Source of the DNA: Trypanosoma brucei
Taxonomy: Eukaryota
Reading direction: 5' to 3'
DNA: 64,000 nt
NCBI GenBank assembly: GCA_000002445.1
Contig: CP000069.1
Location: forward strand, 1,088,001 to 1,152,000
Shown in pieces: positions 23,468-40,948 of the stretch; positions within the stretch are counted from its first letter, which is position 1, and each line of letters begins with the position of its first letter. Position numbers and translations under genes: made by a program. The notes under the pieces were generated by a model, which was given only the letters and a program-made list of their open reading frames with translations, did not search any database and was not told the origin of the DNA.

Positions 23468-24436
23468 CTAACCACCAGCCACAATGCTGAAATGATCTTT
23501 CGGCGGCTGCACAGTCCTAAAGTGTCTCCCCGGTTTGACTGGTACAACAGGGTCCGACTCAACCTTTCCCTCGCTGGCGGCAATCAAAACAATCGCCGCA
23601 GCGACAACAGAAGTTTCCACCACTTTTCGATGACGCATGTACGTTTCCATCAATTCCTCCCGCTTTTCCACCAGAGATTCATAGAACCATGTACGATTGC
23701 GATGGTGCTTCCCCCACGCAAATGCACGCTGGTACATGAAGTAGATACTTACTAGTGCTAAAACCAAATACAAGCGCAAAAACGTCGGACTTCGAGACGG
23801 TAGGTCACCGCTATCACTCAAACGGTCGACTCCACGTTGAAACACTGTCTTTGCGTTGTCTTCTTTCTCGAGGTCCAACGACCGCCTTCGTAACTCCTCC
23901 GTCATCTCTGATTTCGCAGAGAAAGAAGCGTAGCGCGGCTGTTGTGCGCGCACTAATGGCCTGTCGAGCTCTACCCACTTGCCATCATCACGGTTTTGGT
24001 AAATATACTTCCCAGTAGGTGTCACACGCTCAGTAGAGGGATCAAGAGCGCTTAACTTGGCACATTCTTCTTCTGACAAGGTGGCACTCACATGTTCTTC
24101 CGATTGTTGTAACTGTTCAGTGGAGATGGGACTCGGCCAACGCGTCTCAGCATTAGGTTTTTGGCCAACTAACTTCGAGCGCAGCTGCTCATACGCTCCC
24201 TCTTTTAGTAAGAAATTATAAGCCTTATTTATTCGCTCCATTTTTTCACTGTCACCAGTTCCTGAGTCTGGATGGTGAAGTCGAGCCAACTCTCGATAAC
24301 GCATCTTCACCTCCGCCTTCGTAGCTGTGCGGGCAAGACCCAAAACCGCAAAAGGGTCTTTTGAAAGCAAAAAAAACGACGAGCGCATACTATCAAATAC
24401 GAAGGCACTCACCGCGAGCACAACACAAGCGGTCAC
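23468..24436 (-). CDS. J-domain (DnaJ/HSP40-like) membrane protein
   Basis: J domain with the HPD tripeptide: DPFAVLGLARTATKAEVKMRYRELARLHHPDSGTGDSEKMERINKAYNFLL. It has a hydrophobic N-terminus (MTACVVLAVSAFVF) and a C-terminal TM segment (FLRLYLVLALVSIYFMY), with none of the G/F or zinc-finger regions found in type I/II J-proteins. Confidence 0.75.
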   Translation of the reverse strand: MTACVVLAVSAFVFDSMRSSFFLLSKDPFAVLGLARTATKAEVKMRYRELARLHHPDSGTGDSEKMERINKAYNFLLKEGAYEQLRSKLVGQKPNAETRWPSPISTEQLQQSEEHVSATLSEEECAKLSALDPSTERVTPTGKYIYQNRDDGKWVELDRPLVRAQQPRYASFSAKSEMTEELRRRSLDLEKEDNAKTVFQRGVDRLSDSGDLPSRSPTFLRLYLVLALVSIYFMYQRAFAWGKHHRNRTWFYESLVEKREELMETYMRHRKVVETSVVAAAIVLIAASEGKVESDPVVPVKPGRHFRTVQPPKDHFSIVAGG

Positions 24437-24830
24437 AAAGCAACCCTAAGAGTGTACTTTCAATACAATCAAAAAGTAATATTGTGCTTTCAGCTGGAGT
24501 ACAGCGGAAACACACTATAGAAAGAAAACAATAATAATAAGAGTAATTTCTTTTTTAAAGAATTGTTTCACGGGGGAAACCAATAATAGTAAAATATAAA
24601 CAAATTTAAAAATCTTATAAAATTACTTATCAAAACCCCTTCAAACACTTTTAAAAAAGTCAATATCATTATATATTTGCCTAAAATTATAATAGCGAAA
24701 AAAAACGCTCAAAGTACAATAATAAAAAACCTTAAACCACAAATATTATGCCGTCAATTCGACCGACCGGCACAATCATTGAAGAAAAAACGACCGAAGA
24801 TAACACACACACAAAAAAAAATTACACCTC

Positions 24831-26910
24831 CATAAAATAGGCGTAAACATTTTTTTAAAAATGACTCAGTAATGCATCCACCAACATTTCACTTACTCCT
24901 TCTTTTCACCAGATGCCTGCTGCTGTTGTTGCTCACCCTGACCTTCTGTGCTGCTGCTACCAGAGCTACCGCTGTTCGCTGCTGCCGCCTGTTGGTACTC
25001 CGTGCGACCACATTCCATCACTGCCTTTTGCAGTTTGTCAGTAGAAGCCGACAGTTCATCCTTCGTCACGTTTGGATTCTCCATCACCTTGCGAAGTTCA
25101 GCCAAAAGGGTACGCACATTCTCCTTCTCAGCGTCCGTCACGTACTTCCATTCCGTCAGTTGTCGCTCAGCAGTGTTAGCCTGAGTCTCAGCATTGTTAC
25201 GCACTTCCACAAGCTCCCGCTTCACACGGTCAGCTTCAGCGTGCATCTCAGAGTCGCGGATCATGTTCTCGATCTGCTCCTTCGTCAACCCACCATGAGC
25301 AGTAATGGTGATGTTCTGTGTTTTCCCAGTTGCCTTGTCCTTCGCAGTTACGTGACAAATACCATTAGCATCAATGTCAAATGTCACCTCAATTTGTGGT
25401 ACACCGCGTGGTGCAGGAGGAATTCCAACGAGGTCAAACTGACCCATCATTTGGTTGTCAGATGCCATTTCTCGTTCCCCTTGGAACACTTTGATTCCGA
25501 CCTGTGTTTGGTTGTCCGCAGCAGTTGAGAAGGTTTGACTCTTCTTCGTCGGGATTGTTGTGTTCTTGGGAATCATACGTGTGAAGACACCACCAAGTGT
25601 TTCGATTCCAAGTGATAGTGGTGTAACGTCAAGCAATACAAGACCCTTCACATCACCACGGAGAACACCACCAAGTGTTGCAGCACCCAGTGCAACGGCC
25701 TCGTCAGGGTTCACACCACGGAACGGTTCGCGACCGAAGAACTGCTTCACAGCCTCCACAACCTTTGGCATACGCGTCATACCACCAACAAGCACAACCT
25801 CAGAGATTTCCTTCAGGTCAACAGCAGCGTCCTTGATGCATTGCTTGCACGGTCCAAGTGAACGTTGTACGAGCTTATCAGCAAGGGACTCAAACTTGCT
25901 GCGGCTCACCATCATCTGCACGTGCTGCGCTCCGTCCTGGTTAGCTGTGATAAACGGAAGGTTTACCTCCGTCTCCATCGTCGTCGAAAGTTCACACTTC
26001 GCCTTTTCTGCAGCCTCACGAATACGCTGCAGTGCCATCCGCTCCTTGCTCAAGTCAATTCCAGATGTCTTGCGGAATTCCTCCAGAATGTGATCAGAGA
26101 GGCAGAGATCAAAGTCTTCTCCACCAAGGTGAGTGTCGCCATTCGTTGCCTTTACCTCAAAAACACCTCCGGCAATTTCAAGTACGGAGATATCAAATGT
26201 TCCACCACCAAGATCATACACGGCAATTAAGCTGTCCTTCGTTTTGTCCAAGCCATATGCCAGTGCAGCAGCAGTCGGTTCATTCACAACACGGATCACA
26301 TTCAGTCCAGCAATCGTACCGGCATCCTTCGTTGCCTGACGTTGCGCGTCATTGAAGTACGCGGGGCACGTCACCACAGCGTTAGATACTTTGCGTCCCA
26401 GGAAGTTTTCTGCCGTTTCCTTCATCTTCTCAAGTACGAATGCACCAACTTGTGAAGGTGAGTATTGCTTCCCATTCCCATCTTGCACCCACGCATCACC
26501 ATTATTGCTCCGAATAATCTTGTAGGGCACATTCTTGATGTCGTGTTGGATGTGCTCATCATCGAAGCGACGACCAATCAGCCGTTTCACCGCGAAGAAT
26601 GTCGACTGTGGGTTCGTAATCGCCTGACGTTTCGCTGCAAGGCCAACAAGTTTTTCCTGTCCTTTGAACGCAACCACAGACGGTGTCGTCCTGAAACCCT
26701 CTGTATTCTCAAGTACGCGTGGCCGGTCACCTTCCATTACTGCAACACAACTGTATGTCGTACCCAAATCAATACCAATCACGTCACCAGTTACCTTCGA
26801 TGACTGCCACCGCGCAAACGGGGCAGACGCCAGGCACATGGGTGCGCATACACGACGGGCCAACATTTTATTACTTCACAAACTACTTCTTACCTTAGAA
26901 ATACTTTACC
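24831..26910 (-). repeat. mtHSP70 repeat unit, copy 1 (CDS plus about 60 bp shared 3' flank and about 45 bp shared 5' flank)
   Basis: Its 3' flank cataaaataggcgtaaacatttttttaaaaatgactcagtaatgcatcc is shared with copy 3 (38346-38407). Its 5' flank ttttattacttcacaaactacttcttaccttagaaatactttacc is shared with copies 2 and 3, then diverges after 26910. Confidence 0.85.
24893..26866 (-). CDS. Mitochondrial-type HSP70 (DnaK-like, HSPA9/mortalin homologue), copy 1 of 3
   Basis: 657 aa, with an N-terminal presequence-like [24 protein letters not shown]70 signatures are present: [25 protein letters not shown] and [19 protein letters not shown]-terminal substrate-binding domain and a Gly/Gln-rich tail ...[14 protein letters not shown] follow. 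Organellar/DnaK-type traits include the gap pattern and GDAWV. The protein sequence is identical in copies 2 and 3. Confidence 0.95.
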
Positions 26911-27424
26911 TCCGAGAAAATATCTAAGAAGTATGCATGTCATATGATATAGAATAAAAAGGAATATCTCATATATTGAAATCAATGAATCTCTTCTATA
27001 ATTGAAGACGTTACAACTGCGTTTCAGATATGAGTGTATATGTAATAATAAAATTCGTAGTGATGTAATAATAATGTTGTATGGATCGGCTCCCTTCACG
27101 CTCAAAAATCACCAGGTACAGTTGAACTTTGTCGCAGCACCCAACAACAATCAACAAGGATTCGTTTATAACCCTCCAGTTTTCGTTCCTCAATTGTGCA
27201 GATAAACATATAGTGAAACGATAAAACTGAAGCACCCCACACTTCACTAGAAGAAATGAGGACAATAACTTAATAATACCCCATTATCCAAATTCGTTGC
27301 ACCATTTATCAAGTAGATCACAAGCCGGTCAAATTAAAGAAACAAAAAAAGCAATAAAACATAATAGTAATGATAATAATACTCCTTGATAGTAAAAAAC
27401 GTTAAAAAATCAGTTAGAAAAAAA

Positions 27425-29562
27425 TCAGTAATGCATCCACCAACATTTCACTTACTCCTTCTTTTCACCAGATGCCTGCTGCTGTTGTTGCTCACCCTGA
27501 CCTTCTGTGCTGCTGCTACCAGAGCTACCGCTGTTCGCTGCTGCCGCCTGTTGGTACTCCGTGCGACCACATTCCATCACTGCCTTTTGCAGTTTGTCAG
27601 TAGAAGCCGACAGTTCATCCTTCGTCACATTTGGATTCTCCATCACCTTGCGAAGTTCAGCCAAAAGGGTACGCACATTCTCCTTCTCAGCGTCCGTCAC
27701 GTACTTCCATTCCGTCAGTTGTCGCTCAGCAGTGTTAGCCTGAGTCTCAGCATTGTTACGCACTTCCACAAGCTCCCGCTTCACACGGTCAGCTTCAGCG
27801 TGCATCTCAGAGTCGCGGATCATGTTCTCGATCTGCTCCTTCGTCAACCCACCATGAGCAGTAATGGTGATGTTCTGTGTTTTCCCAGTTGCCTTGTCCT
27901 TCGCAGTTACGTGGCAAATACCATTAGCATCAATGTCAAATGTCACCTCAATTTGTGGTACACCGCGTGGTGCAGGAGGAATTCCAACGAGGTCAAACTG
28001 ACCCATCATTTGGTTGTCAGATGCCATTTCTCGTTCCCCTTGGAACACTTTGATTCCGACCTGTGTTTGGTTGTCCGCAGCAGTTGAGAAGGTTTGACTC
28101 TTCTTCGTCGGGATTGTTGTGTTCTTGGGAATCATACGTGTGAAGACACCACCAAGTGTTTCGATTCCAAGTGATAGTGGTGTAACGTCAAGCAATACAA
28201 GACCCTTCACATCACCACGGAGAACACCACCAAGTGTTGCAGCACCCAGTGCAACGGCCTCGTCAGGGTTCACACCACGGAACGGTTCGCGACCGAAGAA
28301 CTGCTTCACAGCCTCCACAACCTTTGGCATACGCGTCATACCACCAACAAGCACAACCTCAGAGATTTCCTTCAGGTCAACAGCAGCGTCCTTGATGCAT
28401 TGCTTGCACGGTCCAAGTGAACGTTGTACGAGCTTATCAGCAAGGGACTCAAACTTGCTGCGGCTCACCATCATCTGCACGTGCTGCGCTCCGTCCTGGT
28501 TAGCTGTGATAAACGGAAGGTTTACCTCCGTCTCCATCGTCGTCGAAAGTTCACACTTCGCCTTTTCTGCAGCCTCACGAATACGCTGCAGTGCCATCCG
28601 CTCCTTGCTCAAGTCAATTCCAGATGTCTTGCGGAATTCCTCCAGAATGTGATCAGAGAGGCAGAGATCAAAGTCTTCTCCACCAAGGTGAGTGTCGCCA
28701 TTCGTTGCCTTTACCTCAAAAACACCTCCGGCAATTTCAAGTACGGAGATATCAAATGTTCCACCACCAAGATCATACACGGCAATTAAGCTGTCCTTCG
28801 TTTTGTCCAAGCCATATGCCAGTGCAGCAGCAGTCGGTTCATTCACAACACGGATCACATTCAGTCCAGCAATCGTACCGGCATCCTTCGTTGCCTGACG
28901 TTGCGCGTCATTGAAGTACGCGGGGCACGTCACCACAGCGTTAGATACTTTGCGTCCCAGGAAGTTTTCTGCCGTTTCCTTCATCTTCTCAAGTACGAAT
29001 GCACCAACTTGTGAAGGTGAGTATTGCTTCCCATTCCCATCTTGCACCCACGCATCACCATTATTGCTCCGAATAATCTTGTAGGGCACATTCTTGATGT
29101 CGTGTTGGATGTGCTCATCATCGAAGCGACGACCAATCAGCCGTTTCACCGCGAAGAATGTCGACTGTGGGTTCGTAATCGCCTGACGTTTCGCTGCAAG
29201 GCCAACAAGTTTTTCCTGTCCTTTGAACGCAACCACAGACGGTGTCGTCCTGAAACCCTCTGTATTCTCAAGTACGCGTGGCCGGTCACCTTCCATTACT
29301 GCAACACAACTGTATGTCGTACCCAAATCAATACCAATCACGTCACCAGTTACCTTCGATGACTGCCACCGCGCAAACGGGGCAGACGCCAGGCACATGG
29401 GTGCGCATACACGGCGGGCCAACATTTTATTACTTCACAAACTACTTCTTACCTTAGAAATACTTTACCACTTACCAACTTGTCTATTAAACCGATAAGA
29501 AGAAGCATTGAGTGGGAGAATGTTTTTTTTTTTAAACAGCTTTAGAACTTTGTTCAATAGTT
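27425..29562 (-). repeat. mtHSP70 repeat unit, copy 2 (CDS plus about 135 bp extended 5' flank shared with copy 3; 3' homology to copy 1 limited to about 27 bp)
   Basis: Its 5' flank, through ...gggagaatgtttttttttttaaacagctttagaactttgttcaatagtt, matches 40382-40518 apart from one g/a SNP (ccaacttgtc versus ccaacttatc). Its 3' flank diverges from copies 1 and 3 upstream of tcagtaatgcatcc. Confidence 0.85.
27452..29425 (-). CDS. Mitochondrial-type HSP70 (DnaK-like), copy 2 of 3
   Basis: A 657-aa protein identical to copy 1. Its nucleotide sequence differs from copy 1 at 3 positions (27629 A versus G; 27914 G versus A; 29414 G versus A), all synonymous. Confidence 0.95.
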
Positions 29563-30855
29563 TTTGCTTATTGCTTTGGTTTTAGAGTCTTCGTATCTAT
29601 GTTATTTAACTGTGTACGTCGCTTGTTTTTAATATCGTACGTTGACGCTCTCTGTCGACAGGTTGACACGATAATAAAATATTATATTGTTGAAGTGGAA
29701 GGAAAGCTTCTTCGCAACATTTCATTTCTATCTTATGTTATTACAGTTACCAGTGTGCTTTGGCTGTTGAAAGAAATGCATTATCCTTTTTTTAAAAAAA
29801 GGGTGGTGTCTTTACAACATTCTCATCAGTTTTGCGAGGGAAGCGGCGACACACATGTCTTTTTCACAACGGCGGATGTCCCGTTGTTCCTTTTCCATAC
29901 CTTGGGCTGGATAAAGAATAATTTAAACAGATTTCATAATTTGCTGATAGGTCCCCCTTGTCATAAGGGTTGTGTGTTATCCAGGCAGCTATCGTGAGGT
30001 AACTGTAGCAATTAAGGCGGCGCGAGCGTGTATTGTAAACATAACGAATACCTCTTTCGCAATATGCCCGCGCATCCCTTAGAAAATTTGCGTGGTTTGC
30101 GAAGGCTGGAGCATCATTATACATTCTTCCTGGCGGCTTCCTTAAATTAATGTCCGTGATATCTCTTTGAGTGTCATTGTGCGACTCACTACAATTAGTA
30201 AGTGAGAGTAGCTGCAGTAAGTCATGAGGGCATCCTTTTTACCATTCCGGTACCTTCCCCTTGCATTGAAGTTTTAGGTTATCCTGTCATCCTGCACACA
30301 AACGAAACCCCCAAACCAAACGCCTTCGCCGTAGCCGTCGCATCTGCGTAGGAATATATTTACCCGCATTACTACGAAAACGATAAGAAGAAAATGGGAT
30401 ATGAACACGACACACAGGAAGAGAACCACTGATATTTCGTAGACGGTGTTACACGAATAACCAGTTGTATTCAGTGGCATAATTCGGAGACTTGCCACGA
30501 AGCACATGAAGAGGCCATTGACCAAATGTACAGAGTCTATTGGCATGTCGTAAACTTGCATGAGAATAAGAGAATGCTTTCTAATTAACGTGAAAATGTG
30601 AAAACGCTGGACTTACTGGACCCGCGCTGCACACTCGTGAAAAGTCACACAACTCTACTCGGCACGCGTATCTTGTTTTCTTAATTATTCTACGGCTCGC
30701 CAAGAATTCAGATAACGAGCGCAGTTTCTACCATTGATGCCGTCGTTTCGTGGAAAAGGCAGAAACAAGTCGATGCTCTCGTCGCAAAACAATACAAAAT
30801 AAACCCACAATCGCCTGCGACAGATTCACAAGAACGCACCACAGAGAACAAAACC

Positions 30856-31872
30856 TCAAATAGGAATGGCTAGTATGTGTGAAACACCGTATTTAGTCGA
30901 GGAGAGAGCAGCCCATAAATCACTCTGTTGCAACATAACGGCAGGCAGAGACCATGATTCGGTATCAGGGACCGTTACGGATGAGAGCTTCTCCGCTCCG
31001 CTTGAGGGTGGCCCAGACTCATTCGTAAGTAACGAATGCAAATCCCAGTACCTCGTGGGTTTGGGGTCCTCCTTCAAATCGAGACACGTCAGCTTCGCAG
31101 AGGTGTCTCCTGCCGCTATGTAGCCATTCCGCATCGCCACAGACCTGATAGGGGCCCGCTCTTTACCGGTTGAAAATGCTTCTTCCCTAACATTCCCCTC
31201 TAAGCACCTCAATACAAACACTCGACCACTAACAGTGCCGGTTGCCACCGCGCCAGTATCCGGGGAGGAGGTAATACTGATAATCTGGTCAGGAACGGCT
31301 AGAATCACCACGGGTTCGTGTCCACGTCTCACGTCATACAACATGGCTTTACCATCGTAAGCGGCAACAACAAGTGTGTTCTGAGTGAGTGCGGTACCAC
31401 CGACGACGCAGGGCTTTGGAATGTGGAGGTTGATTCGCGCGGTCGATGTCTCCAAGTCAATTATCTGTGCATCAGTGGGAGAGCAGGCCAGAAGAAGTGA
31501 AGGTTCATTCGGTACCTCCTTGAGTGAGAGCACAGCAGCTTTGTTCTGAAATGAATAGTGTTGCACCACATTCTTCGAGTGACGGGAGACAAGTACAATA
31601 TCGCCACTTGACGATCCAGTAGCAAAGCACGAATCATAAGAAACGAAACTCGAGGAAATGACGGCACCCTCACCAAAATTACCATGAGGAAAAGTTTCTA
31701 CATGCGTAACTGCTTGTCTTGCTCCGCATTGGGCGTGTTGTAAGTCTCCCATGTGAAATATGTGAGCCCCATTCATCATTGTGCTTGCAAGGCAGGCGTC
31801 CTCATTGCTTGCTTGCGTTAGGCACGATATACAGCCTTGCACCTCAAAGCAGGACGATCTCTCTAGCTTCAT
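30856..31872 (-). CDS. Hypothetical protein, possibly a beta-propeller (WD-repeat-like)
   Basis: A 338-aa ORF. Weakly repeated motifs of the kind seen in WD-like blades (GDIVLVSRHSKNVVQHYSF; TLVVAAYDGKAMLYDVRRG; VATGTVSGRVFVLRC; YIAAGDTSAKLTCLDL) recur at roughly 40-50 aa intervals. There is no canonical GH...WD, so the call is tentative. Confidence 0.45.
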   Translation of the reverse strand: MKLERSSCFEVQGCISCLTQASNEDACLASTMMNGAHIFHMGDLQHAQCGARQAVTHVETFPHGNFGEGAVISSSFVSYDSCFATGSSSGDIVLVSRHSKNVVQHYSFQNKAAVLSLKEVPNEPSLLLACSPTDAQIIDLETSTARINLHIPKPCVVGGTALTQNTLVVAAYDGKAMLYDVRRGHEPVVILAVPDQIISITSSPDTGAVATGTVSGRVFVLRCLEGNVREEAFSTGKERAPIRSVAMRNGYIAAGDTSAKLTCLDLKEDPKPTRYWDLHSLLTNESGPPSSGAEKLSSVTVPDTESWSLPAVMLQQSDLWAALSSTKYGVSHILAIPI

Positions 31873-32230
31873 TGTTTCCGGTTGCGGCTACCGGTTACTG
31901 CTTACAGCCAAACAGCAATACCTAGTAGTAGAAAGAATATCACAGCTATGCCGCTTTCGTGATGGGCCAAGAAAACTGGAGGGGAGAAATAGAAAATACG
32001 CAGTGGGAAGGAATTGAGATAAGCAACAGAACATATCGGTAACGCGCAACCTCCGCAACACTGAGGAAAGAAACGGAAAACGCACTCGCACACACGCACG
32101 AACATGATACTCTCACATAGTCCTCATTCGGCTCGGACATTCAACACAACCGCAGGCATACTATTCTTAAGCCAGGAGCCTCTTCACACCACCCCAATGG
32201 AGAGTTTCCAGCAACATACTTCGCTACTTA

Positions 32231-32917
32231 TTAACAGTGTTCTTTGTCTAATGGGGCCCTGCCACACGAACGCTTTTTGAAAAACTTGAATGGGTAAAAG
32301 ACAATCCCGATAATCGAACCTATTGCAACGGCTGCAGGAAGGTGAATGGGGGAGTAAGCGAGTGCACATTTGGTGTTGAGTCGCACAAACTCGCGGATCC
32401 GTTCTCCCCATGTACGCTCGTTGAACAGCGCCCACATGCCTGGATAGAAAAGATGGGAAGCTAAAAGACACGACAACCCCGGGACCTGCGCACTGATAGG
32501 TCCGAGCCAAGGCATAAAACCATGCATCGCCTTCTCATTTATTACACCAGGCTCAATAATGTAGTAGTAGGAGAGCCAACTGGCAATAAAGTTTACGTAA
32601 AAGAAATCGCTCATCATGCGCGGGATCAGTGTCTTCTTCGTGTCCTGTGTCTGCGACAGCTTCAGCAATGGAGAAGAGGGGGCGGAAACACAAAATGGAA
32701 CCGCAAAGACCGTTGCACAAATGGTTGTGCGTATGATGCGTTTAAATGTCAAATAGCCAGCAACCTCCTGGCGTTGTGCCGGCTCATCGTATTTCGTCTC
32801 TTTTCCTCTCGGAAGCCTAATGTACGGAATATCGCCTTCAGTCTTAACTATGAGCATCGTCACGTTGCGGTTTCGACAGACGGCATTCACCCTTTGATGC
32901 CATGGAAAGAAAAGCAA
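32231..32917 (-). CDS. Hypothetical small multi-pass membrane protein
   Basis: An ORF of 228 aa, or 208 aa from the internal MLIVKTEGD. Hydrophobic segments are TTICATVFAVPFCV, FFYVNFIASWLSYYYII and LPAAVAIGSIIGIVFYPF. No family was assigned. Confidence 0.4.
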   Translation of the reverse strand: MLFFPWHQRVNAVCRNRNVTMLIVKTEGDIPYIRLPRGKETKYDEPAQRQEVAGYLTFKRIIRTTICATVFAVPFCVSAPSSPLLKLSQTQDTKKTLIPRMMSDFFYVNFIASWLSYYYIIEPGVINEKAMHGFMPWLGPISAQVPGLSCLLASHLFYPGMWALFNERTWGERIREFVRLNTKCALAYSPIHLPAAVAIGSIIGIVFYPFKFFKKRSCGRAPLDKEHC

Positions 32918-33337
32918 ACAAGCAAAAAAAAAGGTGGAATGTACTCAGAGATGGAGAGAAACATGAAGAGGAGCGGAACAGAAATGGGGTCGATAATATC
33001 AAAGAGAGTAAAGGGAAGAAAGAAGAGAGGCAACTGACTAACAGGTGAGAGGAAAATTGTCGCACCGTCTTTTCATTAACAACGGAGACAGCAAACGCAC
33101 AGACAAACCGTCAGCCCTTTCTTTCACACCGACACACACACACAAATATATGTATATATATGTATATATCATTTTCTGCATTTCATCGTACCATAATAAA
33201 GTAGCAAATGTTTACAAAATATAAATTACAGCAATAAATAACTAGCGATTAAAGAACAAATACACCTACTCATGACGACTGCACAGTGACATTCACACGC
33301 GGCTATACAGCAGTAAACCCGAAAACACAAGTTAAGC

Positions 33338-34777
33338 TTAATCCACTTCCTCCATACGCAGCACCTTGCACCAGTGGGTAGCCTGCCCAGCCCGTCGCTG
33401 AATTTTATCAGTGTCAAGAAGTTTGGGGTCTACATCGATTAGCTCACTGGTTTCTTCCGTGCATAACTCAAGTTGACGGACTCTGTAATGGAAAGTTTCA
33501 TCCACAGACTTGGTGAAAAAGAGGGAAACGCACGCGTTCATCAGCACACCTCTACAGTCGCGTAATATCCTCTGCGCCTCCTGAAGAACAGTGAGCGTTC
33601 TGTCAAACGACTCCTTCCGGTCTCGAAGTTGGGCGAGTTCGCGCGCTCGCTCCAAACCTTTTCCCAGTGATTGTTCCTCAAGGACGAGGCTCCTCTTGTG
33701 GTTGGTCCATCTTGTGTAATAACTGAGAAAGATCTTTTCAGCGGTGACTTCTCCCACTGATTCACCCCTCTGACACTGATAATACATGTTGTTATGCTGC
33801 ACCCAGGGACCAAGACAAACCCAACAGTATTCGTGGCGGCACCTTGTGCACGTCATATGATTGCAGCCCTTGTCCTTTTCGATCGGGACATGACAATTTG
33901 GACACTCTTTGGTATTCGACTGAATGTACACTAATGAAGGTTCGTACTCTTTAATCAACTTCCTCCACTTCTCTAGCATCTCACAGGTTGCGGGGGCATG
34001 GGGCTTCCCAGTGCATTTGAAACAGAACTGCAGATCACACCTCGCACAACAAACGTCCGGTCCGGACCGCCGAGGGACAGCGACTCGAACGATTCCTTCA
34101 CACGGCAATTCGTTGGGGCAACAACGCATGCTTGGGTGGTTGCTAAGGTACTCGGTGAGAAACCGTTGCTGGGCACGCTTTAATTCCTGCGGCGGCAGCA
34201 ACAATTCCAAAGCGCTCATTGTTACGAGACTACAGCACCCTTGTTTGGGACACCGTCTCTCCAGTAAGTCCTGAGATTTGTTGACGGCGTACACAAGATT
34301 TCTTCTCAAACATTCCGCGCAGAAAAAGTGATGGCACCTCGCGAGCGCCACTCCGTCACCAACACTAACACTTTCCTCGCATACAGGGCACACAATTGGT
34401 TCAGTATTTTTTACCAATGGCGGACCCTGTCCAACACCATAAGTAATACCTGTGGTTGAGTAGTCTGTTATATTCAGTTGACAGTTGATGCTACTTTGTG
34501 AATTCATGTAGTTCTCAAGCGTGTCGTCATCCAATTTCCAGTTATAGTGTCGAAGAACCAAAAACGCAGCCTCTTCTGGGAGGTCAAGGATTTCACTAGC
34601 CTTCTCCACGTCATCGTGGAGTTCCTTCATAGCATCACGAGCCGAAACCGTAGTAAAGATGGTTAAAATAGTGGACATGCCTTCCGGTTGCCCCGCCATA
34701 CCAAAGTGGGCCACGTCAAACGACTGATCGTCGTGATCACAAACATCATCGATATTGCCACACGAATTAACGTTCAT
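33338..34777 (-). CDS. RBR (RING-between-RING) E3 ubiquitin ligase, Ariadne-like
   Basis: Acidic N-terminus with a UBA-like stretch EEAAFLVLRHYNWKLDD. RING1: CPVCEESVSVGDGVALARCHHFFCAECLRRNL. IBR: RCPKQGCCSLVT...CCPNELPCEGIV...CARCDLQFCFKCTGKPHAPATC. RING2/Rcat, which holds the catalytic Cys: KECPNCHVPIEKDKGCNHMTCTRCRHEYCWVCLGPW. A C-terminal helical Ariadne-like domain follows. Confidence 0.8.
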   Translation of the reverse strand: MNVNSCGNIDDVCDHDDQSFDVAHFGMAGQPEGMSTILTIFTTVSARDAMKELHDDVEKASEILDLPEEAAFLVLRHYNWKLDDDTLENYMNSQSSINCQLNITDYSTTGITYGVGQGPPLVKNTEPIVCPVCEESVSVGDGVALARCHHFFCAECLRRNLVYAVNKSQDLLERRCPKQGCCSLVTMSALELLLPPQELKRAQQRFLTEYLSNHPSMRCCPNELPCEGIVRVAVPRRSGPDVCCARCDLQFCFKCTGKPHAPATCEMLEKWRKLIKEYEPSLVYIQSNTKECPNCHVPIEKDKGCNHMTCTRCRHEYCWVCLGPWVQHNNMYYQCQRGESVGEVTAEKIFLSYYTRWTNHKRSLVLEEQSLGKGLERARELAQLRDRKESFDRTLTVLQEAQRILRDCRGVLMNACVSLFFTKSVDETFHYRVRQLELCTEETSELIDVDPKLLDTDKIQRRAGQATHWCKVLRMEEVD

Positions 34778-35076
34778 AAATTTTTTAAAAAATTAAACAC
34801 TGGGTGACCGAGTACTCTTACCCTCCACACACTAATTTTGCTCTTACGAAGTCCTAAGGGGTGTAAAAGAGTTACAAAATGGATTTTCTACATGTTAAAA
34901 CTAAAAGTAGGAACACATAACAACCTCATTAAATGCCCTCATACTGGTAAGCAAGGGTAAATGCAAATAGACCCCAACATGCAGATGAATAATACAAAGA
35001 TAGCGACGCGTTCTCTTAAACGTATTCGTTAAAGAGGTGGTGGAGGGGGCTGTTAATATAAGATAACAAAAACTGC

Positions 35077-37464
35077 TTACTTCATCGACACACTTTGCCC
35101 AAGTGCCCATCGTTTATACCATTCCACGTCCATGGGGCTGACGCGGGGCCTCACCTTCTGCAACGCGGCATCAACGTTTTCGGTAGAAATGTACGGACTC
35201 TTTACCCCAGCCGTCACACACTGAAAGGCTGCTTCCTTGATAACTGCAACAACCTCGGCGCCAGTGTAACCCTCCGTCCGAGCAGCCACATAATCCGCAT
35301 CGAGTTCCGGCGATAAAGGTATATTTCGAAATTGAATGCTGGCAATCATCTTCCGCTCATTGATGTCCGGCAGCCCAACATAAACCTTTCGGTCTATGCG
35401 ACCAGGACGTAGAACCGCCGGGTCTATGTTATCAGGGCGATTTGTGGCGGCGACAAACACCAATGCATCTGTACCCTCGTTGAGAGCAGCAGGAAGACCG
35501 TCTAGTTCGGTTAAAAATTGAGAAATAACACGATCTGCCACACCACCACGACCACGATGTCCGCACATACCATCAAGCTCATCGATGAAGACAACACATG
35601 GTGCGGCGGCACGAGCACGCGCAAAAATGTCACGAACTGCCTTCTCGCTGTCACCGACCCACTTTGAGAATACCTCAGGCCCTTTAACCGAAACGAAATT
35701 CATTTTAGACTCATTGGCGAGCGCCTTCGCCAACATTGTTTTGCTGCACCCCGGGGGACCGTACAAGAGGACTCCTTTCGGTGGTGAAAGATTGAACTTA
35801 CGAAACACCCACTGCTGCTTTCCGAGGCACCATGCCACACAGTCCTGCAGCGTCTTTTTGGCCACTTCGCTACCCCCAATATCACTCCATTTTACGGACG
35901 GAATAGAAACCTGAAACTGTCTAAGAGCAGATGGAGGCACAATCTTTATCGCCTCTGTTATAGAGGAATCGGTTATTTCAGTCTTCCCAGTTTCCTTAAA
36001 TGCTTCAATGGATGCCACGTCAAGTAATCGAACGAGGTCCCGCTGAGTGAAGCCATTCGTCGACTCAGCCGCTAGAGAAACAAAACTTGCCGTAACTTTC
36101 GCTTGCCCCCCAAATGTTTTCAGACGGTTTTGAAGGAACTCGCGACGCTCCTCTGCGGACCCAGGTGCCAGTAATTTTACCTGCTCACCAAAACGGTCGT
36201 ATGTTAGTAGTGACCGTGGTAAAGACTCCACAGAAGCAGCAGAACCCACAACGCGTACATCCAACTGACGAATCCGAATGTCATCTAGTTCACTAGCCAG
36301 AGTGGACGCTAACAGTCCCTTTGCCCACCCAGATTCAACAACTCCATTGTCTCCAGTGGCACAGACAAGATGAAGGTCATCAATGATTACCGTGGACGGG
36401 GCGCCAGCTTTCGCGCGAACAAATACTTCTCGAAGAACGGTCGAAGAGGAGATATCACACATGTTTCCCTGAGACAACACCTCAACACTCACCGTTTCCA
36501 CCTGCCGTGAGTGAAGAGTTGCAGCCTCATGCGCCTCCCTCCTCAAAAAGTAACTCTTACCGGTGCCTGTATCCCCCAACACGAGTAAGTGAGATTGCTT
36601 TTTTTCCACCCCAACCGGCACAGGTTCGCCATCAAACAACTCAGTTTCACAGACTGTACCGCGCCCAATATACCTAATCTTCGACCCATCGATAAGAATC
36701 CCCAAATCGATTTGTCGGACATCCGTATCGCCCTCAACGCATCCCTCAGCTACGGATTTACAACAACATTCCAACACATCAACGTAATATGGAACCGTGC
36801 CAACATGCAAGGCAGCTCGCATCCCGCGGAACACCAGCCGCCGTTGATACCGCCGGCGAAATGCAGAACACACTTGAAGGAATGGAATGTCGGTGGAGCT
36901 TGTCAACCCATCTGCACCAACAGCGATTCGTGCTTCCTTTGTTATTTCCAAAACCAGAGACGAGAGCGGTATTAGAGGACAGATGTCCTTAGCAACAGAT
37001 ACAGTCACCTGTTTCCCACTGAATGCAGCAGCCACTTCATCAGCAAGCATAATGGTCTGTGAAGCACATGAAGAGGAACAAAATGCCTCTACGAATGCCC
37101 GAACAGATCCATCACCTTCCACACACAACACCGCTCCACTAATGATTCCTAACTCCTTTAAAGAGTGAGGCGAAAGCCGTGCCTCATTGGAGGGCAAACA
37201 ACTATCTGAACGGACATTCAGGGAAACTGCCACGAAGCTTTTACTTCCTTCACTGCCACAATTAACGTCGGCAACCTTCGCCCCGGACAACACTGAGGTA
37301 GTGGATTTCATGTCATTGTGTCGCATATGTTCACCGCGTTGATTAGGGATTTTTAAGCGCGCATCTCCACCAGCACCGCCACCGGAACCATCATGATGGT
37401 TATTTTCATTGTTGCTACCACGCCGCCCTTCACGGTGGTTCGGCCGCCTTGCTTTGGCGCCCAT
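35077..37464 (-). CDS. Type II AAA+ ATPase with degenerate D1 and canonical D2 (CDC48/NVL/AFG2/PEX1-6 family)
   Basis: The D1 P-loop is degenerate (LLVLGDTGTGKSYFLRREAH). D2 is canonical: Walker A GVLLYGPPGCSKTMLAKALANE, Walker B CVVFIDELDG, SKWVGDSEKAVRDIFARAR, and second region of homology/Arg-finger ATNRPDNIDPAVLRPGRIDR. A basic Gly-rich N-terminus (MGAKARRPNHREGRRGSNNENNHHDGSGGGAGGD) precedes D1. Confidence 0.85.
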   Translation of the reverse strand: MGAKARRPNHREGRRGSNNENNHHDGSGGGAGGDARLKIPNQRGEHMRHNDMKSTTSVLSGAKVADVNCGSEGSKSFVAVSLNVRSDSCLPSNEARLSPHSLKELGIISGAVLCVEGDGSVRAFVEAFCSSSCASQTIMLADEVAAAFSGKQVTVSVAKDICPLIPLSSLVLEITKEARIAVGADGLTSSTDIPFLQVCSAFRRRYQRRLVFRGMRAALHVGTVPYYVDVLECCCKSVAEGCVEGDTDVRQIDLGILIDGSKIRYIGRGTVCETELFDGEPVPVGVEKKQSHLLVLGDTGTGKSYFLRREAHEAATLHSRQVETVSVEVLSQGNMCDISSSTVLREVFVRAKAGAPSTVIIDDLHLVCATGDNGVVESGWAKGLLASTLASELDDIRIRQLDVRVVGSAASVESLPRSLLTYDRFGEQVKLLAPGSAEERREFLQNRLKTFGGQAKVTASFVSLAAESTNGFTQRDLVRLLDVASIEAFKETGKTEITDSSITEAIKIVPPSALRQFQVSIPSVKWSDIGGSEVAKKTLQDCVAWCLGKQQWVFRKFNLSPPKGVLLYGPPGCSKTMLAKALANESKMNFVSVKGPEVFSKWVGDSEKAVRDIFARARAAAPCVVFIDELDGMCGHRGRGGVADRVISQFLTELDGLPAALNEGTDALVFVAATNRPDNIDPAVLRPGRIDRKVYVGLPDINERKMIASIQFRNIPLSPELDADYVAARTEGYTGAEVVAVIKEAAFQCVTAGVKSPYISTENVDAALQKVRPRVSPMDVEWYKRWALGQSVSMK

Positions 37465-38345
37465 GTCGCTGTTATGCGTGACTTAACCCTTGCACGCAAC
37501 TAATGGTACGTACTGGGTTTAACACGCTCTACACCACAAAGGCGATTACACACAGGCACCAAAAAAAAAGGTACAAACAACGAAAAAAAACATATATGGA
37601 GAAAATTTGAGATGAAAAACACAGAAATATATAACAATACCTGTCTAAAGCAACGCATAAGAACATGGCAAAGGCGAAAGTAAACAACCACATCCCAATT
37701 TATCAAAGAAAAAAAATTATACTTTAGTTCTTTATTTACGACCGGTGGTTTCTCTTCTCTTCAATTTTTATAATGTCAAAAACATGAGTGACAATAATAT
37801 TTAAAATAATGGTAATAATATGAACGACAGTAATAATAGGACGTTGAGAACAATCTCAGCTTCCTTTCCCTCCCTAGACAATCTCACATGCTCACAAAAA
37901 TCATGAACACCAAACAAAATCCAATCACACATTCTGCGTGTCTCTTTTCTATTTTATCGGCTGAAACACCGAACAAAATCAAAAAAATAATAATAATAAT
38001 CAACCTCTTTCCTTCTTTTTAACCGCCACCTCTGGACAAAAAAATTATTATCTCAAAAACTTTCAACAAACATAGCTTTAACACAAAGCTACCAAACATC
38101 ATACCAAACAACAACACAACCACGAATATACTGGGAAAAATTAAACCCTCAACACAGCACATAAAAAAAATTCAAAAACAAAAAACACACCAAATAATAC
38201 CGAACATCGAAAGGAGAAAAAACATTTGTTCTTACCAACAAGAAAAGAATAAAATAAAACACAAAAATCAGCATGTGTTTTTAAAAACAAAAAAATAAAA
38301 ATAAAAAAAGAACAAAATCAAAAGTAAAAAATATATAGAATCCTG

Positions 38346-40518
38346 CATAAAATAGGCGTAAACATTTTTTTAAAAATGACTCAGTAATGCATCCACCAAC
38401 ATTTCACTTACTCCTTCTTTTCACCAGATGCCTGCTGCTGTTGTTGCTCACCCTGACCTTCTGTGCTGCTGCTACCAGAGCTACCGCTGTTCGCTGCTGC
38501 CGCCTGTTGGTACTCCGTGCGACCACATTCCATCACTGCCTTTTGCAGTTTGTCAGTAGAAGCCGACAGTTCATCCTTCGTCACGTTTGGATTCTCCATC
38601 ACCTTGCGAAGTTCAGCCAAAAGGGTACGCACATTCTCCTTCTCAGCGTCCGTCACGTACTTCCATTCCGTCAGTTGTCGCTCAGCAGTGTTAGCCTGAG
38701 TCTCAGCATTGTTACGCACTTCCACAAGCTCCCGCTTCACACGGTCAGCTTCAGCGTGCATCTCAGAGTCGCGGATCATGTTCTCGATCTGCTCCTTCGT
38801 CAACCCACCATGAGCAGTAATGGTGATGTTCTGTGTTTTCCCAGTTGCCTTGTCCTTCGCAGTTACGTGGCAAATACCATTAGCATCAATGTCAAATGTC
38901 ACCTCAATTTGTGGTACACCGCGTGGTGCAGGAGGAATTCCAACGAGGTCAAACTGACCCATCATTTGGTTGTCAGATGCCATTTCTCGTTCCCCTTGGA
39001 ACACTTTGATTCCGACCTGTGTTTGGTTGTCCGCAGCAGTTGAGAAGGTTTGACTCTTCTTCGTCGGGATTGTTGTGTTCTTGGGAATCATACGTGTGAA
39101 GACACCACCAAGTGTTTCGATTCCAAGTGATAGTGGTGTAACGTCAAGCAATACAAGACCCTTCACATCACCACGGAGAACACCACCAAGTGTTGCAGCA
39201 CCCAGTGCAACGGCCTCGTCAGGGTTCACACCACGGAACGGTTCGCGACCGAAGAACTGCTTCACAGCCTCCACAACCTTTGGCATACGCGTCATACCAC
39301 CAACAAGCACAACCTCAGAGATTTCCTTCAGGTCAACAGCAGCGTCCTTGATGCATTGCTTGCACGGTCCAAGTGAACGTTGTACGAGCTTATCAGCAAG
39401 GGACTCAAACTTGCTGCGGCTCACCATCATCTGCACGTGCTGCGCTCCGTCCTGGTTAGCTGTGATAAACGGAAGGTTTACCTCCGTCTCCATCGTCGTC
39501 GAAAGTTCACACTTCGCCTTTTCTGCAGCCTCACGAATACGCTGCAGTGCCATCCGCTCCTTGCTCAAGTCAATTCCAGATGTCTTGCGGAATTCCTCCA
39601 GAATGTGATCAGAGAGGCAGAGATCAAAGTCTTCTCCACCAAGGTGAGTGTCGCCATTCGTTGCCTTTACCTCAAAAACACCTCCGGCAATTTCAAGTAC
39701 GGAGATATCAAATGTTCCACCACCAAGATCATACACGGCAATTAAGCTGTCCTTCGTTTTGTCCAAGCCATATGCCAGTGCAGCAGCAGTCGGTTCATTC
39801 ACAACACGGATCACATTCAGTCCAGCAATCGTACCGGCATCCTTCGTTGCCTGACGTTGCGCGTCATTGAAGTACGCGGGGCACGTCACCACAGCGTTAG
39901 ATACTTTGCGTCCCAGGAAGTTTTCTGCCGTTTCCTTCATCTTCTCAAGTACGAATGCACCAACTTGTGAAGGTGAGTATTGCTTCCCATTCCCATCTTG
40001 CACCCACGCATCACCATTATTGCTCCGAATAATCTTGTAGGGCACATTCTTGATGTCGTGTTGGATGTGCTCATCATCGAAGCGACGACCAATCAGCCGT
40101 TTCACCGCGAAGAATGTCGACTGTGGGTTCGTAATCGCCTGACGTTTCGCTGCAAGGCCAACAAGTTTTTCCTGTCCTTTGAACGCAACCACAGACGGTG
40201 TCGTCCTGAAACCCTCTGTATTCTCAAGTACGCGTGGCCGGTCACCTTCCATTACTGCAACACAACTGTATGTCGTACCCAAATCAATACCAATCACGTC
40301 ACCAGTTACCTTCGATGACTGCCACCGCGCAAACGGGGCAGACGCCAGGCACATGGGTGCGCATACACGACGGGCCAACATTTTATTACTTCACAAACTA
40401 CTTCTTACCTTAGAAATACTTTACCACTTACCAACTTATCTATTAAACCGATAAGAAGAAGCATTGAGTGGGAGAATGTTTTTTTTTTTAAACAGCTTTA
40501 GAACTTTGTTCAATAGTT
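38346..40518 (-). repeat. mtHSP70 repeat unit, copy 3 (dispersed copy carrying both the copy-1-type 3' flank and the copy-2-type extended 5' flank)
   Basis: Its 3' flank at 38346-38407 matches 24831-24892 of copy 1. Its 5' flank at 40382-40518 matches 29426-29562 of copy 2. It is separated from the tandem pair by four unrelated genes. Confidence 0.85.
38408..40381 (-). CDS. Mitochondrial-type HSP70 (DnaK-like), copy 3 of 3
   Basis: A 657-aa protein identical to copies 1 and 2. At the three polymorphic sites it carries G (38585), G (38870) and A (40370). It therefore matches copy 1 at two sites and copy 2 at one. Confidence 0.95.
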
Positions 40519-40948
40519 GTTGATATATGTTATTGCTTTCTGTTGTTTTTTTTTAATTTAGTTGTGTAGATAAAAAAATTGTGACACATACTTGGAAAAT
40601 AGTATCTTATTTGTTTTCCTTGGCAGTCACTAGTGTAACGTTGTTTTTCTTGTTAAGCTTAACAGGTTTTAACGTTATACTGTGTTACTGCACGAACAAG
40701 CATTGAAAGAATAATTCTTTTTTTTCTAAGTGACTGAATTTTTTCTTTTTCCAACTGCCTTACCATTCATAAAGAGGTTGTGGAAACTTTTTGTTCGTCT
40801 CTTTGTGGCGGTGTGTTTCGGTACAAAATTGTTTCAAGCACCCCACTTCTGACCTGTGAGCAACTGTTGTATTAAACGCTCCTTTACTTGTAATTGTTTC
40901 ACCTGTTTTGGTGACATCACTTGCTCTTCAAACTCTTTGTTGTTATTT

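Follow-up and report, generated by a model that had tools for sequence, protein, structure and literature searches.

Three mitochondrial HSP70 genes and their flanks

The 64,000-nucleotide stretch of the Trypanosoma brucei TREU927 genome analysed in this study (the window, contig CP000069.1) contains three genes for mitochondrial HSP70 (mtHSP70), two of them arranged in tandem and the third separated from the pair by four other genes. Two sites are distinguished, site A between the gene for a protein of 511 amino acids (aa) and an AAA ATPase gene, and site B between a WD40 gene and a DnaJ gene. The three copies are as follows (coordinates are those of the window):

24893–26866, minus strand: mtHSP70 copy 1 (c1, Tb927.6.3740), site B, DnaJ-proximal member of the tandem pair, with a 657-aa open reading frame (ORF)
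27452–29425, minus strand: mtHSP70 copy 2 (c2, Tb927.6.3750), site B, upstream member of the tandem pair
38408–40381, minus strand: mtHSP70 copy 3 (c3, Tb927.6.3800), site A, single copy

The coding sequences are 1974 nucleotides (nt) each and encode identical 657-aa proteins. Only three nucleotide differences were found among them, and c3 carries the majority base at all three. The protein matches the annotated T. b. gambiense mitochondrial HSP70 precursor at 100% identity, and the HSP70 domain PF00012 is on record for a protein identical to that of the window. The C-terminus forms a glutamine-rich acidic tail, which is diagnostic of mitochondrial HSP70 (Drini 2016), and the N-terminus looks, by its sequence, like a mitochondrial presequence. 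The mitochondrial location of mtHSP70 has been reported, as well as its essential role in protein import and kinetoplast DNA maintenance (Týč 2015). The gene identifiers were assigned from the poly(A) coordinates and lengths of the 3′ untranslated regions (3′UTRs) in Table S13 of Kolev 2010; a single offset of 1,088,000 fits all three stop codons, and c1, c2 and c3 are therefore Tb927.6.3740, Tb927.6.3750 and Tb927.6.3800, respectively. By the same offset, the window corresponds to positions 1,088,001–1,152,000 of TREU927 chromosome 6 (v4).

The long ORFs near the mtHSP70 genes are all located on the minus strand, as expected of a trypanosomatid polycistronic unit. Antisense ORFs of 177–233 aa are present on the plus strand at 24872–25528 and 25560–26093, with repeats at 27386–28087 and 28119–28652 and at 38387–39043 and 39075–39608. 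Their threefold recurrence follows merely from the repeated coding sequence and is no independent evidence of genes.

The flanks of the three copies were compared in register, and by BLAST and MAFFT alignments, which gave the following map:

26867–26910, 29426–29469 and 40382–40425, minus strand: proximal 5′ flank, 44 nt, identical in c1, c2 and c3
29470–29566, minus strand: extended 5′ flank, in c2 and c3 only (matches 40426–40522), with a polypyrimidine tract and, at −60, the first AG downstream of it
40426–40522, minus strand: extended 5′ flank of c3, counterpart of 29470–29566
27425–27451, 24866–24892 and 38381–38407, minus strand: proximal 3′ flank, 27 nt, identical in c2, c1 and c3
24827–24865, minus strand: extended 3′ flank, in c1 and c3 only (matches 38342–38380)
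38342–38380, minus strand: extended 3′ flank of c3, counterpart of 24827–24865
26911–27424, minus strand: unique AT-rich spacer between c2 and c1, unrelated to the other flanks

A reading of the window made from its letters without database searches (the sequence-only reading) had described a mosaic of flanks, with both long flanks on c3, and this mosaic was reproduced nearly base for base. The shared 5′ flank that it placed on the c1 side as 45 bp is present, with an exact length of 44 nt. The c2/c3 5′ flank that it placed at 29426–29562 is real and extends to 29566, position 29562 being located right before the second mismatch; the whole flank (29426–29566, equivalent to 40382–40522) is 141 nt long with two mismatches. 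The c1/c3 3′ flank is perfect over 24831–24892 and reaches 24827 by BLAST (62–66 nt). In c2, seven of the 11 positions past the 27 perfect nt of the 3′ flank match, hence the 38 nt obtained by BLAST. Shared flanks of 62–141 nt at 98–100% identity are far beyond what chance would give. Flank homology running much further was checked as well, and little extension beyond the earlier map was found.

In the 5′ flank of c3, at 40523–40541 (−142 to −160), TREU927 shows a 12-nt indel and substitutions as compared with site A of T. b. gambiense and T. b. equiperdum, whose site A flank resembles that of site B as far as about −160; the boundary of the shared flank has thus shifted within the T. brucei group. 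An in-register similarity between the site A and site B flanks at about −185 to −200 (TACACA..TAAA), considered as older homology, was not significant by the shuffle test and is not claimed.

The spacer between c2 and c1 has a GC content of 0.319, compared with 0.449 for the window. No alignment of its unique part (26911–27413/27424) to the other flanks exceeded the shuffled controls in Smith–Waterman comparisons (z ≤ 2.7), and searches against the rest of the 64-kb window gave low-complexity matches only, in agreement with the earlier description of the spacer as unique AT-rich sequence homologous to neither flank. Comparison with the loci of T. vivax, T. cruzi and Leishmania likewise yielded low-complexity matches only, and no remnants of neighbouring coding sequences or RNA genes were found in the spacer. 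A relaxed BLAST match of about 68% over 120 nt, considered as diverged homology to the flanks, was rejected, as it consisted of the 27–38 identical nt plus T-richness. The same spacer is present in T. b. gambiense at 97.8% identity.

The sequence-only reading had explained the mosaic by taking c3 as the original unit, copied into the c2–c1 pair with a junction created by unequal exchange at micro-homologies. The presence of both long flanks on c3, and the fact that c3 is the consensus at the three variable sites, with c1 and c2 resembling c3 plus one or two private changes, are in favour of this model, as is the lone site B copy of T. b. equiperdum, which has both long flanks in common with site A. 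The model predicts, however, a c1-type 3′ flank joined to a c2-type 5′ flank, and the spacer of about 500 nt matches neither. No direct 3′-flank/5′-flank junction exists in the pair, where the flanks amount to only 27–38 nt and 44 nt; the mosaic is therefore not the pattern expected from micro-homology unequal exchange, which would give a flank-to-flank spacer of about 70–80 nt rather than about 500 nt of unrelated DNA. Together with the comparative evidence given below, this makes such an origin of the pair very unlikely.

Synteny and concerted evolution of the two sites

The loci of the closest homologues were compared and each neighbour gene was checked by tblastn. The Pfam families of the four genes between the sites were taken from the collinear T. 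b. gambiense and T. b. equiperdum loci:

30856–37464, minus strand: four genes between sites B and A, encoding a WD40 protein (338 aa), a protein of about 208–228 aa, an IBR/RBR protein (479 aa) and an AAA ATPase (795 aa)

The gene order in T. brucei, T. vivax and T. cruzi is 896/843 aa, 511/452 aa, HSP70 (site A), AAA, IBR, about 200 aa, WD40, HSP70 (site B) and DnaJ. The number of copies at each site, and the limits of the flanks shared between copies outside the window, were as follows:

T. brucei TREU927 (window): one copy at site A, two at site B
T. vivax: two copies at site A, one at site B; shared flanks −15 to +72 (A1/A2) and −39 to +731 (A1/B)
T. cruzi: two to three copies at site A, one at site B; shared flanks −6 to +5 (A1/A2) and −567 to +5 (A1/B)
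T. b. equiperdum: one copy at site A, one at site B; shared flank −158 to +86 (A/B)

Site B adjoining the DnaJ gene holds at least 2–3 copies in L. mexicana, L. braziliensis and Leptomonas, and L. major has LmjF.30.2460-90 plus the separate LmjF.30.2550 (Drini 2016). Since both sites are occupied in the same order across species, both predate the Trypanosoma radiation, which rules out c3 as the source of a newly made site B. If the pair were a recent derivative of site A, its site should be empty in the outgroups, and it is filled, with conserved synteny, in T. vivax, T. cruzi and the Leishmaniinae. The claim that c3 is ancestral and the tandem pair its duplicate was consequently abandoned, the near-identity of the copies being accounted for by concerted evolution.

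Coding sequences of the two sites are 99.6–100% identical at the nucleotide level within a genome (99.9% for c1 and c3), versus 79–86% when a given site is compared between species. At five coding positions (381, 522, 840, 1734 and 1860) the TREU927 copies all have the same state and the two T. b. equiperdum copies share a different one, and two positions of the 5′ flank and one of the 3′ flank split the two strains in the same manner. Parallel mutation at eight positions in two sites is not credible, and these eight strain-separating substitutions common to both sites indicate that the copies and their short flanks were homogenised after the strains separated. They reflect ongoing homogenisation and not a single duplication, which is a further point against c3 as the original unit. 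In the tandem pairs of T. vivax and T. cruzi, too, the internal spacer bears no relation to the outer flanks. Likeness greater within than between genomes, lineage-specific shared substitutions, and abrupt tract edges that vary from one lineage to another are thus all found in this family, as concerted evolution requires.

A derived C at coding position 1797 is found in c1 and c3 only. It matches the 99.9% identity of these two copies and their shared flank to +66, and hints at an individual, recent exchange between sites A and B that bypassed c2. The consensus base at all three variable coding sites is a weak sign that c3 was a recent donor; it is not a sign of ancestry.

It is very likely, in our judgement, that the three genes are members of an mtHSP70 family long established at two sites and kept uniform by gene conversion, and that the mosaic flanks are the limits of the converted tracts. 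Intrachromosomal conversion between and within sites A and B would homogenise the coding sequences, and the number of copies per site would drift by unequal crossing-over between repeats. The flank edges would be the points where conversion tracts stop as homology runs out, at −44 and +27 beside the internal spacer, and, for site A and the outer ends of the site B pair, at about −141 and +66. No copy can be termed ancestral.

Several points weigh against gene conversion as the explanation. Conversion as the mechanism, the limits of its tracts, the direction of transfer and any difference in regulation between the copies are inferred, no conversion event having been seen directly; the flank map, the conserved synteny, concerted evolution and the unequal 3′UTR lengths are shown. 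T. b. equiperdum has a single site B copy, and some T. brucei lineages could thus have gained the pair fairly recently; such a gain, or an old array lost in T. b. equiperdum, could account for the difference, as could a collapse of the T. b. equiperdum assembly at that place. The comparison leaves out T. congolense, the nearest outgroup. The spacer of about 500 nt may be an old intergenic region that diverged freely and was never reached by conversion, or imported DNA that arrived with the extra copy. Finally, ectopic conversion is rare and copies split by other genes usually diverge (Jackson 2007), so that the mtHSP70 family would be an exception.

A recent gain of the tandem pair in one lineage would mean that the ancestor had one copy at each site, and that an extra copy and the spacer were inserted at site B in the TREU927/T. 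b. gambiense lineage; the source could, for example, have been a former tandem pair at site A, such as those of T. vivax and T. cruzi, moved by ectopic recombination. The single site B copy of T. b. equiperdum, with a c2-type 5′ flank and a c1-type 3′ flank, agrees with such a gain, but is equally explained by a deletion through crossing-over between c2 and c1. In T. vivax, a spacer with 115 nt of the next coding sequence is found at the other site at 99.8% identity, which would be a parallel case of movement. No homology was found between the T. brucei spacer and those of T. vivax or T. cruzi. The T. b. gambiense assembly puts the same spacer also after the site A copy; however, it has N gaps at every odd join, its contigs were ordered on TREU927, and the number of repeat units was called arbitrary by its authors. 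We consider a recent gain improbable, and it departs from gene conversion in an old family only in the age of the pair, as conversion between the sites would still be needed.

The T. b. gambiense DAL972 locus thus shows a third arrangement, with an N gap at each unexpected join of an assembly ordered on TREU927, and it was not used as evidence. In this assembly (L002, 11975–13461; L003, 12281–15045) the spacer and a partial copy follow the site A gene, and a c3-type 3′ flank is placed after the first site B gene, each of these joins lying beside a 100-N gap. The first 1.2 kb of the spacer and following copy at site A are identical to the corresponding stretch of site B. The DnaJ-proximal copy (P0006, 658 aa), with 91% protein and 96% DNA identity, looks of low quality or misassembled.

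The T. b. equiperdum locus (GCA_003543875.1; L013, 10001–11974) is gap-free, with a single site B mtHSP70 gene between a c2-type 5′ flank and a c1-type 3′ flank, without spacer, which could be a copy-number polymorphism in the T. brucei group or a collapsed repeat. In T. vivax (L004, 11963–12713) the site B copy is followed by the full 616-nt site A spacer and the first 115–135 nt (approximately) of another mtHSP70 coding sequence; this trailing segment is 99.8% identical to site A and is cut off before the DnaJ gene. It is an actual example of a truncated junction, and represents either an incomplete copy or what a transfer between the sites has left behind. The number of tandem copies at site A of T. 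cruzi is three on one contig (L011, 7463–14372) and two on others (L008, 7530–11968). A spacer of about 503 nt is reused in the site A haplotypes with two or three copies, which indicates that the arrays expand and contract through crossing-over within the repeats.

In all trypanosomatids examined, the site B mtHSP70 is directly followed by a DnaJ-domain protein gene (23468–24436, minus strand, in the window), with counterparts in loci L004, L007, L012, L015 and L016. This gene differs from the mtHsp40 named by Týč 2015 (Tb927.9.12730). The DnaJ-adjacent copy of the Leishmaniinae is a divergent form of 635/636 aa that has about 80% identity with the window protein and is conserved across genera (L. 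mexicana, L014, 10001–11911; L. braziliensis, L015, 10001–11908; Leptomonas pyrrhocoris, L016, 10001–11911). Because this divergent form is kept across genera, one Leishmaniinae paralogue has escaped homogenisation.

mRNA ends and processing signals of the copies

The published 3′ ends of the three mRNAs, and the trans-splicing signal predicted for c1 by script-based inspection of the sequence, are located as follows:

24608–24892, minus strand: c1 3′UTR, predominant length 285 nt, average 199 nt (Kolev 2010, Table S13)
27025–27451, minus strand: c2 3′UTR, 427 nt, predominant site 27025 (chromosomal 1115025), dispersion 9.6 nt (Kolev 2010, Table S13)
37682–38407, minus strand: c3 3′UTR, predominant length 726 nt (Kolev 2010, Table S13)
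26924–26964, minus strand: predicted c1 trans-splicing signal, with a polypyrimidine tract at 26951–26964 and the first downstream AG at 26925/26924 (−59)

Only the first 27–66 nt of the 3′UTRs are common between copies. The suggestion of the sequence-only reading that the copies may have different UTRs is therefore borne out by the published lengths of 285, 427 and 726 nt, and identical UTRs in all three copies were not what was found. Different UTRs of the mtHSP70 copies had been noted earlier (Týč 2015), and the finding of copy-specific 3′UTRs is thus already published (Kolev 2010; Týč 2015).

The c2 poly(A) site at 27025 precedes the tract at 26951–26964 by about 60 nt and the first AG before c1 by about 100 nt. 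In trypanosomes, polyadenylation is coupled to trans-splicing downstream, and these organisms are not known to have a separate poly(A) signal. The c2 3′-end region and the c1 splice-acceptor region are therefore really one signal, and a poly(A) site shortly upstream of tract and AG is the layout of coupled polyadenylation and trans-splicing. The spacer had been proposed to supply both regions, which agrees with the c2 poly(A) site inside it and with the tract and predicted AG of c1. It holds the full c2 3′UTR (427 nt) and would also hold the polypyrimidine/AG signal for trans-splicing of c1 and, by coupling, for polyadenylation of c2. Copies c2 and c3 have their own polypyrimidine tract at −95 to −85 and the first AG at −60, within their shared flank. 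If those AGs are used, the 5′UTR of c1 is predicted to differ from those of c2 and c3 only in its first 14 nt or so. All three genes are located in one polycistronic unit and give the same protein from mRNAs with site-specific 3′UTRs and perhaps slightly different 5′ ends.

The mapped ends also bear on the assembly of the window, since a reference with wrongly joined repeats might show identical copies with sharp edges. Assembly is difficult for 2-kb coding repeats with an identity above 99.6%, and the T. b. gambiense locus is visibly broken. Nevertheless, the poly(A) sites were mapped experimentally in three different 3′ flanks, the one that falls in the spacer having a dispersion of 9.6 nt; the copies carry distinct private single-nucleotide polymorphisms; and the independent gap-free T. 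b. equiperdum assembly is collinear with the window from site A through the four intervening genes to the site B 5′ flank. An artefact of assembly is extremely unlikely to underlie the mosaic.

Exact (AUU)/(UAU) repeats of at least three units, the type of motif to which ZC3H11 binds, are seen in the c2 3′UTR at 27373–27381, 27067–27075 and 27043–27051, and a repeat of five units is found at one site of the c3 3′UTR (37986–38000); no exact (AUU)3 or longer repeats were found in the c1 3′UTR. Control of mtHSP70 by the heat-shock regulator ZC3H11 was considered and set aside, as the mtHSP70 mRNA is not enriched with ZC3H11 and the corresponding table names only Tb927.6.3740 (Droll 2013). In a 3′-biased single-cell RNA-seq study, Tb927.6.3750 alone among the copies is a cluster marker. 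This hints at a copy-specific signal readable from the unique 3′UTRs, and differential regulation is not thereby shown.

Selection might maintain the two-site split, with one invariant protein, held identical by conversion, produced from mRNAs whose site-specific UTRs allow stage or stress control through the unconverted flanks. The lone Tb927.6.3750 single-cell marker and the AUU repeats of c2 and c3, absent from c1, are hints that fit this idea, and the arrangement is conserved across Trypanosoma and probably in Leishmania; we nevertheless regard it as unlikely.

Comparison with known multicopy families

The mosaic flanks are in themselves an ordinary and largely known feature, and the locus is of little import beyond trypanosome genomics. 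The modest addition made here is that two-site synteny together with shared strain-specific substitutions argues for concerted evolution, with the caution that, in families evolving in this way, the copy with the most complete flanks need not be the ancestral one. The site-specific 3′UTRs are unique tags by which each copy may be measured or manipulated, as reads from the coding sequence cannot separate the copies. If the copies were differently regulated, this would be a case of regulatory sub-functionalisation without divergence of the protein.

Concerted evolution through gene conversion is known for tandem arrays of T. brucei (Jackson 2007, BMC Evol Biol 7:54). As in those arrays, there is hardly any difference between the mtHSP70 coding sequences, the non-coding flanks of the outermost copies are shortened or differ from the rest, paralogues group by genome and not by position, and tracts can cross the start and stop codons. 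Unlike those arrays, one mtHSP70 copy is homogenised despite four unrelated genes between it and the pair and despite unrelated UTRs; copies set apart in this manner were reported in that study to escape as a rule and to retain their orthology. In addition, the terminal UTRs of most arrays in that study are a shortened internal spacer, whereas the mtHSP70 spacer is unrelated to the outer flanks.

The HSPA9 genes on chromosome 30 of Leishmania (Drini 2016) belong to the same family, have the same DnaJ neighbour, and likewise form a split array with mostly species-wise clustering; the Leishmaniinae family differs in its DnaJ-proximal copy, which escaped homogenisation and is orthologous across species. 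The species-specific clustering in Leishmania was read as independent amplification (Drini 2016). In Trypanosoma, both the synteny of the two sites and the strain-specific substitutions shared between them favour conversion over independent amplification, which weighs against taking species-specific mtHSP70 clusters as independent amplification in Leishmania.

For the cytosolic HSP70 array of Leishmania, the unique 3′UTR of one copy is described as giving temperature-dependent expression (Folgueira 2005, as cited in Drini 2016). By that account, (near-)identical proteins are produced there too from copies that differ mainly in the 3′UTR, and the regulation was demonstrated experimentally, whereas the T. 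brucei mtHSP70 case is known from UTR lengths alone. Post-transcriptional control of this type, differing from copy to copy, is what the sequence-only reading had suggested for the window. As far as that citation describes it, the cytosolic HSP70 array of Leishmania is the closest precedent for regulation through a copy-specific 3′UTR.

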